Source: Nemertoderma westbladi (taxonomy: Eukaryota > Animalia > Xenacoelomorpha). From it: a stretch of DNA of 64,000 bases. Location of the stretch: NCBI GenBank assembly GCA_032718475.1, contig JAUCBJ010002506.1, positions 62,001 through 126,000 on the forward strand. Direction: 5' to 3'. Positions within the stretch are counted from its first letter, which is position 1, and each line of letters opens with the position of its first letter. The notes beneath the pieces are model-generated. The model was not told where the DNA came from, did not search any database, and saw only the letters and a list, made by a program, of their open reading frames with translations. This document shows positions 20,192-26,563 of this stretch, one piece after another. Made by a program: the position numbers and the translations under genes.

Positions 20192-21994
20192 CGTTAGCAA
20201 TATATTTATAACCAATTGGATTAATTGTCAAAATTGATTAAAAGTCAAAATACAAAATGTAAAACTATTTTTTATAGAATGCCATAAAGTATTATATTAT
20301 ATTATATAAGGTATTACTATTTATTATTGCCAGCTATATTTATTTTCTTTTGACTGACTTTTGTCTTTGACTTTGACTCGGTAGTGTGAACGCGGCCTAA
20401 GGGTATACACGATTCTAATATTATTAGCTTTCACTTGCGTTCTAGAATATATTATATTATATATTAAGCAAATTCGATTAGTCGTTAGCCACATATATCC
20501 AGACATACATACACATACACCTTTACATACGTTATGTGAACGCACCTTAAGAGTTAGGAGTTTAAGTATGGCCTGGGTACAAAAATGTTGATTTTCTGTA
20601 GATGCGTTTTATGTGTGATAAAATATATGGATCGAATTCTAGAACATAGTGGGCCCCCATAGTGGCGCCGCAACGCTGCAAAGTAGTACTTTGCAGCGTT
20701 ACGAGTAATTCACCATAACGCTGTTAAGTTGACATAATTAGTGTAACAAAAGATTAAAAAAATTATACAATCTCACTTACAGTCCGGTAGATATTACATT
20801 ATACATTGCATGGAAGTATATAGTAAATGTTTTAACTGATTTGGGTTGGTAATATTGTTGGCATCAATAATCCGACTGATGGGGCCAACTGGCATCATTA
20901 AGGATTTTCCTAAATGTTATCAAATTCTACACCGGATGCGGATATCTGGACTTTATATATATGCAAAAATAATACGATTTTCGGTCCCACAGGGCTGTGT
21001 TCCAGAACGTTTTTACGTCTAATTTAGGTCAAATTTAATCTAATAGGGGCAACCCCGGTTTCAAATTAAATAGTGTGTTATATCGTAACCATAGTGAAGT
21101 TTCGTACAGTTAAATTAATTTTAAAAATGATTTCATTAACATACCATTGCGTCAACATCAGTCTCAAATTGATGGTTGTATCTTAATATTAAATAATATT
21201 AAATATCTTAATCTTTTCAACTTCTAGCCAAATGCATAATCGTAAAAAATAGATGAGGTGTGACTGAAATTAAAATTATCATAAAAGTGAGCCATAAGAT
21301 TGGGATTCTCAAGTGATGTAAGTTTAATTGTAATCATAGGCGTACGAGGCGGGGGGGGGGGAGGGGGGTGCAGCCCCCCAGTGAACCAAGGAGGGGGGGG
21401 GGGGGGGTGCAGCCCCCCAGTGAACCAAGGAGGGGGGGGGGCGAGGGGGGTTCAGCCCCCCAGTGAACCAAGGAGGGGGGGAGGGGGATGGGGGGGGAAA
21501 TCAGAGATGGAGGCGAAAAATCCGATGAGAGAGAATGTGGCGAAAAATGTAATCAAAGGGGAAGCAGAAAGGGGGGGGGGGGGTGAAAAAGAAACTCGAA
21601 ATCCAAAGTATAAAGTATAAATAACATTTCACCACTTTTATAATTTATTTTGAATGAGGATGTTGTTATTATAGAAACGGGAAAACAATAGTCACTTTAT
21701 GTTCAGTACTTTGATAAACTATAACTTAGAAGGTTAAAAACATACATACAATCAACCATGGGGATAAAATAGCTTACCTCGAATAGTTTATATAGAACGC
21801 GAATATGCAATTCGGTTTTATATATAATATTGTTCTAGAATTTTTTTTATTTAATTTAATTTGAGATTAATAATTTATATTAATATAATATTTTGCATTG
21901 AATTAACTAAATAAATGAATACGAGTCCATGTTCTCTATTACGAATACAAGTAAATGTTTTCTGATACATAACGTCTAAAACTGTTGCGGGTCC

Positions 21995-22124
21995 TTACGT
22001 CCTCTTGCCTCTGATCCTACGGGCCAGTTTGGATATCCTTCGGCATTATGGTAACTCGATTGGCGTGGATAGTGCACAGATTCGTGTCCTCAAACAATCC
22101 AACGAGATAAGCCTCAGATGCTTC
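21995..22124 (-). pseudogene. H3: Histone H3 C-terminal fragment (from about E94 to the stop), with one frameshift
   Basis: Reads [32 protein letters not shown][+1 nt][10 protein letters not shown], against canonical [42 protein letters not shown]. Confidence 0.95.
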
Positions 22125-24606: not shown

Positions 24607-26563
24607 TTTTTTATATATAATAATAATGAGAAAATTATTGACATATTTTGCAAAAAGAAAAGGTAGAAATAAATTGTTCTGTTGACTTTTCTTCTTATAA
24701 ATTAATTACCTCTGTCTGTATATAACCTCTATAACATTATGTTTTATAATATTTTTGCATTCAATTAATAAATTGTGTTTCTACGAATTATTACATCCGC
24801 CAATTTTGGTTTGAGGAACAGAGAATTTTTTTGCGAAGGATGTTGAATATTGTTTGGTTGGGAGAGGTGAATTTTGTTGGATGGGGGAATGTTTTTTTGG
24901 GGAGGCGGTGGGGCGAAAATGTGAGATATTTTTACAGTCCCCCCAACGAAGATGACTTCCGTGCGCCTATGATTGTAATGAAAGCATGTACCATTTGTTA
25001 ATTTTCAACAGTAAATTTATGTCTAAAATATATGGAAGCGATGGGATGAATTGGTTCAACCAAACCGTTGCTGGGCACAACTGGTGACTTAATGGTTGCT
25101 TTTAAATTGTTCTATCTACACAACATATCCTCAATGATGCAAGCTAGGCATCTGTCACATTGTTGATCACCATAAAATTTCCTAAAAGAATCACTCCAAA
25201 CATTTACTATAATATTATACTTCCATCAAGGTGTACTGAATAACAGGTATGTCATGGTATGGGAGCCTAATCCTGAAGTTAACGTGGGCCGATCTTTTCC
25301 CTATTCATGGCACTTTTCATAATATTTCCTTTGAAACTTCTTATTACTTTTGTTAAGTGTATATGAGCAGGGTTCATAGCAAAGTAATACAATTTTTAAT
25401 GAAAAGTATTTCTAGAATTGTTATCTTGTTGTTGTCAATAAACAAAACTGTCCAATCAGAGAGCAAGACCTATGATAGCATGATTTTGACATTCCAGAAT
25501 ATTAAATTTCGGTTAGCAATTATTAGAAACAAAGGACGGCCACCAGGAATGTATGTTGCAAATGATATAAATAGTAAATAAAATAGTAGCCCTATTTCTA
25601 GTTGGCGGTCATGATGGGATCGTAATACCCATCAACATGGAAACGGGATTGAAAAATATTTATATGTAAAATATTTTGATACACTTTTATTCCCTTTACT
25701 CACATAACAAATCTGAAGAACAGAATCCCTCGTCGTTTTGAATTACAGACACTTTATTACATTTCTATATCCACCTAACCAAAGTAGCACATAAGAAGTT
25801 TCTAAGGAAATAGTATGAAAATAGTGTCTTAAAGATCGGCCCACGCTAATTTCAGCAATCCGCTCGCTGCATGACCTGTTATTTAGTAAACCTTGAATCC
25901 AATGCAAGGTTCAGTAGTGAACTACGGACGTATCTGCTATGAGCTAAAAAGCTGACGCATGGTCTAGACTAGAAGTGACTATAAATTATAAGTAATGTCG
26001 TCTACGTTTAGAACTACAGACGTTATTCTATAAAACCTCTGTCGTTTTGTTAGAACTAAATTATTACTTTAGAATCAACGATAATGATTGATGGAAGGAC
26101 ACTTTCCACAAACTCTTCTGGCTAAAGTTTGAAATAAAATAAATCTAAAATACAAATTATAACAAAAGCCGGGAAGCGATAATAGGCCTAACTCCATATT
26201 TCGAGTTTCATCCGATCGCATTATGATTTATGGAAAAGATGGATAGTAAACGCTACTCCGTCCCGTCAACTAGATAGATAGATAGATAGATAGATATAAT
26301 ACAAAATATAAACAACGTTTTGCACAGGTTCACCAATACCAATAACATACTATTAGGTCGTCCGGACTGTAATTAATAATTAGTACATATTTGAAAAGTA
26401 CGTACGGTACATACAGTATGTACAGTAGGATAGAGATAAATAAAGATGTATGTACAGTAAGTATACGTTAGTATCAGACAATTTCAAAATTGTCAATCAA
26501 ATTTCAAAAACAAGATATATTTAACGAAGTTTAATTGGGGTGTAAACGTTACGCCGACAGAAC

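Follow-up and report, generated by a model that had tools for sequence, protein, structure and literature searches.

The closest precedents for the element described here are two SVA subfamilies of hominines, SVA_F1 (MAST2 exon 1) and pt_SVA_D6 (STK40 exon 1). Each was founded by splicing of a host exon, and they number 84 and 94 copies, respectively, according to the excerpted text of two reports (PMC6139936, PMC12593883). As these excerpts describe them, one splicing event swapped the element end for a host exon, the host piece stops at the exon boundary, and the product was amplified; a first exon was spliced at the 5′ side into an acceptor of the non-autonomous SVA, and a promoter is thought to have been gained. 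The element in question lies on the minus strand of a 64,000-nucleotide stretch of the Nemertoderma westbladi genome (contig JAUCBJ010002506.1, positions 62,001 to 126,000), referred to below as the window and numbered from its first letter. It is a non-LTR (long terminal repeat) retrotransposon with a restriction-like endonuclease (RLE), and the terminal exon of histone H3.3 takes the place of its 3′ end at a splice site. The window copy is one 5′-truncated member of a young, dispersed family of RLE-type elements that have the last H3.3 exon as their 3′ end and that probably arose through one splicing event.

Unlike SVA_F1, the element would have supplied the splice donor and captured a terminal exon together with its 3′ untranslated region (UTR); it carries its own open reading frame (ORF) for reverse transcriptase (RT) and RLE, and appears to have lost the whole of its native 3′ UTR. 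The single origin followed by amplification that characterizes SVA_F1 is seen here in a frameshift shared by the copies and in a junction depth far above that of the flanks. L1 elements are known for exon shuffling as well as for 3′ transduction. In the latter, L1 and SVA elements carry downstream host sequence within the target-site duplication (TSD), as here (excerpted text of PMC12593883). Ordinary 3′ transduction proceeds by read-through and retains the element's 3′ UTR and A tail, whereas in this family the native end has been lost, the two parts meet at a splice site, and the host piece is fixed.

The element also resembles the CRE clade (CRE1/2, SLACS, CZAR, Cnl1, MoTeR, and FoTeR) and R2, which have a single ORF composed of an RT followed by a CCHC motif and a PD-(D/E)XK-like endonuclease. 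Insertion of CRE and R4 yields a target-site duplication, as stated in the available part of PMC3636483. It differs from CRE and R2 in that no fixed target is seen, in its host-exon tail, and in sharing 14–17% identity with R2 in a fold comparison. In Utopia at U2, R2 at 28S, and NeSL and CRE at spliced leader genes, the 3′ end of an ORF-bearing element likewise abuts a conserved host gene's 3′ portion (PMC4640811, in excerpt). In these systems, as the excerpt presents them, the gene half belongs to a genuine copy of the gene, where it flanks the target site; in the present family it is mobile with the element, bears the same mutation in all copies, and derives from a spliced, apparently single-copy gene. 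No H3-tailed or histone-targeting RLE element was found in the literature searched, a scope outside which Repbase Reports and most subscription journals fall. Excerpts of PMC5678591, PMC13708176, PMC7650587, and PMC10088271 yielded nothing about histones.

An H3.3 exon shared by the copies of a retrotransposon family

After the TAG stop codon of the ORF (22128–22126) come a single T (22125) and H3 sequence that runs from E94 (22124) to a TAA at 21995. A sequence-only reading of the window had described this arrangement correctly. It had also reported no 5′ half of H3, and no further H3 sequence is present elsewhere in the 64 kb. The H3 piece matches the Pfam Histone domain with an E value of 4.7e-12 and aligns to residues 94–124 of 135-residue H3 chains. 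It is broken by a +1 frameshift at 22028 and contains the changes A111T and K115N relative to these chains, along with E133K and A135T relative to the H3 C terminus; the frameshift and the four changes had gone unmentioned. A histone stem-loop was not matched in the tail that follows the H3 stop.

Other copies were studied through contigs of public sequencing runs. Of six such runs, four (X1, X2, X3, and X5) were used for 21300–25000 and three for 21790–22200. X2 and X3 come from one sample, and X1, X2/X3, and X5 from three studies. Statements about contig pieces and about loose ends, at which a contig departs from the window sequence, concern those listed for these runs. The notion that the junction marks an exon boundary came from the gene structure of vertebrate H3.3 and was set down before the loose ends at base 22124 were inspected.

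Three different continuations depart at this base. An X2 contig leaves for at least 255 letters into a pyrimidine tract that ends in ...TTATTTCTTTCAG in the sense of the element. With its polypyrimidine tract and AG, this sequence is an intron acceptor. In X5, the departing sequence encodes AAIGALQ, residues 87–93 of H3.3, and represents the spliced form. An X1 contig of the ORF end (80 nt, depth 55, four differences) passes from TAG-T into GTAGGT, which matches the splice donor consensus GTRAGT at five of six positions. The window joins the donor-like side seen in X1 to the acceptor side seen in X2 exactly in GT-AG register, with one shared base (G). The captured host piece starts at the exact exon boundary, from which both the intron acceptor and the spliced exon leave, and the GT donor of the X1 contig is the candidate for a matching splice site in the parental element. 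That the H3 piece begins precisely at the acceptor of the last H3.3 exon had been missed by the sequence-only reading, and it argues for capture by splicing rather than for insertion into H3.

The H3 piece is the replication-independent H3.3, as shown by AAIG at positions 87–90, the intron-containing gene, and the lack of the stem-loop. AAIG is a mark of H3.3 in the excerpted text of PMC5011920. Over the H3 part, X5 reaches a depth of 20,000–110,000 and covers little else (6 of 30 bins of 21300–25000); from this pattern and the spliced junction, X5 is read as RNA. Its cover reaches beyond the H3 stop as far as 21909, which means that the exon brought along 85 nt or more of the H3.3 3′ UTR. The stretch 21901–21994 is covered both by X5 (depth 600–75,000, to 21909) and by DNA contigs resembling the H3.3 gene.

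The fusion of ORF and H3 is family-wide and multi-copy. The junction is bridged, by 31 letters or more to either side, in three of the four runs, representing three studies, by contigs of X3 (22064–22190, depth 1368), X1 (22092–22160, depth 664), and X5 (22060–22335, depth 49); the piece listed for X2 has only 25 letters on one side. The ORF body has depths of 279–338 in X1, 181–240 in the longest contigs of X2, and 373–421 in X3, compared with 5–24 for flank contigs. Depth increases toward the 3′ end, as 5′ truncation predicts, and contigs of X1, X2, and X3 run past 24602 into more of the element.

That the fusion is a one-time chimera, deletion, or misassembly confined to this locus, or that the H3 piece already resided in the miniature inverted-repeat transposable element (MITE) hosting the insertion, would be suggested by the low-complexity TSD with filler on both sides and by the fact that none of the listed contigs spans the whole insertion. 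The junction depths of 664–1368 in two studies and 49 in a third speak against it, as do paralogues of the MITE that are free of H3 and an X2 contig (depth 15) that matches the 3′ junction of the window exactly over 21790–21886. These paralogues are empty: in their contigs, 21812 or 21817 is linked to 24620 through 12 or 6 other letters, and neither the retrotransposon nor H3 is present. Such a one-off event is very unlikely.

Every DNA contig covering 22028 carries the base inserted there, the depth without it being 0 of 1410 in X1, 0 of 5870 in X2, and 0 of 1219 in X3. A contig of X5 with a depth of 20,018 does not have the base. The insertion shared among the DNA contigs indicates one origin of the H3-tailed family, and the tail is dead as a gene. 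An X2 contig at 22052–22111 (depth 34) shows two base differences, equal in number to the amino acid changes in that segment. Once the window-only differences at 22000 and 22150 are removed, contigs of X2 resembling the H3.3 gene show about 5 differences from the family in 147 bases, and the sister with the GTAGGT continuation shows about 3 in 68. The window copy and the ORF contigs of X1 differ at 10 of about 2,390 bases. The larger divergence of gene and sister suggests that capture was earlier and spread recent. The present master would then be a retrocopy whose H3 part had already decayed, and the family does not draw new sequence from the H3.3 locus. In X1, the depth ratio suggests that H3-tailed copies outnumber the unspliced sister about ten-fold or more.

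The H3.3 source gene looks single-copy, as its X2 depth of 33–34 is about twice the single-allele depth of 15–17; the corresponding contigs have a depth of 44–56 in X1. If these H3.3-gene-like contigs represent one locus, an assignment of our own, the haploid genome would contain about 5–8 long copies and some 15–40 copies bearing the junction, and the lower flank depths would imply more.

The sequence-only reading had proposed that a master copy sits at a fixed site in H3 genes, or that H3 serves as a 3′ UTR or a homing tag. An element that targets histone H3 genes, with read-through RNA moving the downstream half of H3 or with H3 as the tag, would be in keeping with its class, given that four of the five RLE clades are mostly target-specific (PMC4640811, in excerpt). 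The source, however, is no tandem array but an H3.3 gene that contains an intron and has about two times the single-allele depth in X2, and the frameshift in every DNA contig over 22028 means that the tails are not fresh H3.3 flanks. Insertion into H3 would also not yield a 3′ UTR of one base. The listed 5′-side loose ends (22062 and 22182 in X1, 22108 in X2, and 22335 in X5) and 3′-side ones (21882 in X1 and X2, and 21943 in X2) are all different and mostly AT-rich, and none of them is an H3 exon or H3.3 intron. The two loose ends inside the exon could instead belong to other H3.3 retrocopies. Truncated copies with unrelated AT-rich flanks and an apparently single-copy H3.3 gene leave H3 targeting unsupported, and we regard it as highly improbable. 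Adoption of H3 as the family's 3′ end stands, on the high-depth junction contigs and the H3-free empty MITEs; the homing tag and the master copy at a fixed H3 site do not. A single fixed site in a genuine multicopy target gene is likewise at odds with these flanks, the shared frameshift, and an H3.3 gene of about one locus.

At about 21901, where loose ends occur in X1, X2, and X3, the majority of copies part from the window sequence. From more than 2000 above 21902, depth falls stepwise to 138, 79, and 35 in X1 and to 173, 94, and 32 in X2. The 52 AT-rich bases and the A8 run beyond this point (21849–21900 and 21841–21848) therefore belong to a minority of copies. An X1 contig carries ten more A residues at 21841 than the window. 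At 21849–21901 of the minus strand, two alternative 3′ continuations are observed past the H3.3 UTR, and the minority one steps off at 21882 and 21841.

Splicing and other possible routes to the junction

Under the favored history, the H3.3 transcription unit most likely harbored the ancestral copy in sense orientation, the alternative being trans-splicing. The spliceosome would have joined a cryptic GT donor, one base past the element stop, to the AG acceptor that the last H3.3 exon naturally uses, thereby taking away the element's own 3′ UTR and providing the coding end of H3.3, its 3′ UTR, and probably its polyadenylation. The spliced RNA would then have been retrotransposed. The H3 part of the retrocopy presumably decayed, acquiring the frameshift and a divergence of about 3–4%, and the decayed retrocopy may have become the master of the present family. 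The family appears to insert by target-primed reverse transcription at unrelated AT-rich sites, in this instance a MITE with a 14-bp duplication. Signs of this mode in the window copy are the 5′ truncation at 24602, the 14-bp duplication, and the A8 run, which is longer in the X1 contig.

A family-wide chimera could also have formed without splicing, either by a template switch of the RT from H3.3 mRNA to element RNA or by a DNA deletion that brought an element lying upstream into contact with the exon, with the exon boundary hit by chance. Template-switch chimeras are known, including a case of SVA and a processed pseudogene (PMC12593883, in excerpt). The joint has one base of microhomology, and the donor is represented by one contig. 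Yet the break falls at the exact first base of the exon, one of two registers among some hundreds of mRNA positions, and a GT is found on the element side; by our own rough estimate, such a joint would occur by chance less than once in 1,000. A switch to the 3′ end of element RNA should moreover retain its 3′ UTR, of which one base remains. Chimera formation of this kind is unlikely.

Several points weigh against capture by splicing. The donor is seen in one 80-nt contig of one run, extends 12 letters past the junction, and is not seen in X2. Its positions −1 and −2 (T and G) are non-consensus, and the GTAGGT sister could be a later, rearranged copy. The 30 visible letters of the H3.3 intron do not come from the element, and since no contig connects the two, the ancestral location was not observed. 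X5 carries the label 'DNA?'. The depth of a contig does not equal a number of copies, the assembly may derive from one of the DNA runs, and the listings of loose ends and pieces are partial. The contigs do not show the 3′ end that most copies have past 21901, or its poly(A), and the 5′ junction of the window copy is not among the listed pieces.

In this history, the H3.3 UTR would serve as the working 3′ end. H3-tailed copies may be mobilized in trans by a native-tailed element, although the window ORF is uninterrupted. A bolder proposal is that the native 3′ UTR was wholly discarded, that the H3.3 terminal exon, from a chromatin gene that is essential and strongly expressed, was adopted as the RNA tail by an autonomous family that has outgrown its parent, that the enzyme primes in cis on any host-type 3′ end, and that the tail is advantageous. 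We consider this proposal doubtful. If it were true, the tail could make polyadenylation and stability as good as those of host RNAs, or could protect against silencing, since small RNAs against the tail would also hit H3.3 mRNA.

R2, the model RLE element, initiates reverse transcription by engaging its own 3′ UTR, and solved R2-3′UTR complexes are among the structure matches of the element. Spread after replacement of the 3′ UTR amounts to a natural experiment on what RLE enzymes need at the RNA 3′ end; copying would not depend on the native tail if the splice-capture history is true. This bears on the use of RLE proteins as RNA-templated gene-insertion tools. Capture of this type is also a route that scatters the last exon of a conserved gene in tens of copies, and it may mislead histone gene counts and H3-based markers.

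The encoded protein and its relatives

The stop-free frame of the minus strand spans 22126–24705 (859 codons), of which 24602–22129, about 825 codons, derive from the element. It encodes an RT domain (PF00078) and a C-terminal motif, C-X2-C-X9-H-X3-C-X8-RH-X20-E-X10-RVD-X15-D, that begins at residue 631 and recurs in 115 of the 120 homologues. Of 7,996 candidates scored, 807 proteins match at E < 1e-30. The best full-length matches are 45–47% identical and two partial ones 61%, none of them informatively named. In an alignment of 107 sequences, 78 of the 106 homologues carry more than 100 residues upstream of the start of the window copy, which is thus 5′-truncated. Some full-length relatives (P0010, P0023, P0030, P0035, P0059, P0109, and P0120) contain varied extra Pfam domains, PF02257, PF00628, PF02037, and PF00443, which are RFX, PHD, SAP, and ubiquitin-hydrolase domains.

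A profile search of solved structures returned R2 proteins as the best matches, spanning both the RT and the endonuclease (E 8e-26); a single-sequence search of these structures gave nothing under E 0.2. The predicted model has a predicted local distance difference test (pLDDT) score of 93.9, and its best fold match is again R2 (E 1e-22). Matches in the ESM Atlas are unnamed RVT_1 clusters only. As R2 ranks first by both profile and fold at low identity, the element is of the RLE type (R2 group) and distant from R2.

The CRE label given by the sequence-only reading is plausible from motif style. The endonuclease consensus of SLACS and CRE, C-X1-3-C-X7-8-H-X3-4-C-X9-10-RHD/N-X19-33-E-X9-21-R/KPD-X12-14-D/E (PMC12857005, in excerpt), has the same order of residues as the element; three spacers are off by one, the motifs RHS and RVD take the place of RHD/N and R/KPD, and the consensus is not CRE-specific. 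The fit to this consensus is loose, and placement in the CRE clade is tentative.

Related loci in metagenomes were examined as the best 80 of at least 469 confirmed, which are 27–46% identical to the element. Of these, 64 reach the end of the ORF and 50 have at least 130 bases past the stop. H3 adjoins none of the 80, a further point against H3 targeting; the best tblastn E value is 0.38 and the best phmmer E value, over the 64 tails, 0.76. An exact 29-base junction pattern has no match in the metagenome contigs. The H3 tail is not a trait of the wider group, and relatives at 27–46% identity are silent on the nearest kin. An A run or a simple repeat occurs within 250 nt in 41 of the 64 loci with an ORF end. 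Many distant relatives have a short 3′ UTR with a conserved-looking hairpin in the first 100 bases after the stop, followed by A runs and (TAA)n (e.g., L012, L022, L025, L028, L030, L031, L033, L044, L048, L052, L056, L065, L070, and L071). A strict hairpin pattern is matched by 8 of the 64 tails, and the hairpin is a candidate native 3′ recognition signal of that sub-lineage.

Layout of the locus and neighboring features

Features of the insertion and its host MITE, in window coordinates
Feature	Position	Strand	Evidence
Left 8-bp TSD of host MITE, ATTGTAAT	21327–21334	.	
Host MITE, left part, including terminal inverted repeat 21335–21346	21335–21815	+	
14-bp TSD of retrotransposon, at element 3′ end	21816–21829	.	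14-mer count; X2 junction contig
11-nt filler between A tail and TSD, origin unknown	21830–21840	−	Sequence; low-depth cover only
A8 run, likely poly(A) tail	21841–21848	−	Loose end at 21841 in X1
AT-rich 3′ extension in a minority of copies	21849–21900	−	Depth steps; loose end at 21901
Post-stop sequence, read as H3.3 3′ UTR	21901–21994	−	X5 cover to 21909; H3.3-gene-like DNA contigs
Last-exon coding part of histone H3.3, E94 to stop, frameshift at 22028	21995–22124	−	Pfam; loose ends at 22124
Junction TAGT/GAAGCA, putative splice joint of element donor and H3.3 acceptor	22124–22125	−	Three different loose ends at 22124
Uninterrupted, 5′-truncated ORF of RLE-type non-LTR retrotransposon	22126–24602	−	RT, CCHC and RLE; profile; fold
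RT; CCHC and RLE core	about 24129–23560; 22710–22477	−	
6-nt filler at 5′ truncation junction	24603–24608	−	Sequence versus loose end at 24602
14-bp TSD, at element 5′ end	24609–24622	.	14-mer count
Host MITE, right part, including terminal inverted repeat 24960–24971	24623–24971	+	
Right 8-bp TSD of host MITE	24972–24979	.	

The unit sits, as the sequence-only reading had it, inside a MITE (21335–24971) that is flanked by a perfect 8-bp TSD, ATTGTAAT, and has terminal inverted repeats of 12 bp. The sole basis of its 'hAT' label is the length of the TSD, with short terminal inverted repeats present. The 14-bp repeat said to bracket RT, H3, and tail holds up as well: the 14-mer occurs exactly twice in the window, against an expectation of 0.01 and none of 100 shuffles with two occurrences. 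Inside the duplication are 11 nt (21830–21840) and 6 nt (24603–24608) of filler. In X5, another copy of the MITE ends at 24971 with a different flank.

A resemblance of 21830–21925 to host sequence at 24674–24790 had also been reported. As a MITE-derived piece, this segment was rejected: the local score of 73 is within chance (63 ± 8, maximum 91, in 200 shuffles), and the variants of one MITE paralogue, judged by eye, bring it no closer to the MITE. A third copy of the MITE terminal motif is located at 48196 and is followed by the same G-rich internal repeat; no matching right end was found for it in the window within one mismatch.

Four other features were observed in the window. An uninterrupted, apparently intronless serpin frame of 393 codons (19046–20227, minus strand; PF00079, E 1.8e-108) lies about 1.1 kb from the MITE. 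A sestrin frame of 554 codons, also uninterrupted (37875–39539, plus strand; PF04636, E 8.5e-88), is located in a GC-rich patch and represents a single-exon gene or a retrocopy. A BEL/Pao-type LTR retrotransposon (52389–59720, plus strand) contains a gag-like frame (DUF1759) and a pol frame of 1,530 codons that do not share a reading frame. It is bracketed by a 1.6-kb direct repeat (50544–52141 and 60090–61697, 95%) that overlaps a 68-bp tandem array. Finally, a 1.2-kb inverted repeat, with arms at 40308–41448 and 42955–44122 that are 91% alike and about 1.5 kb apart, is a possible foldback-type element.

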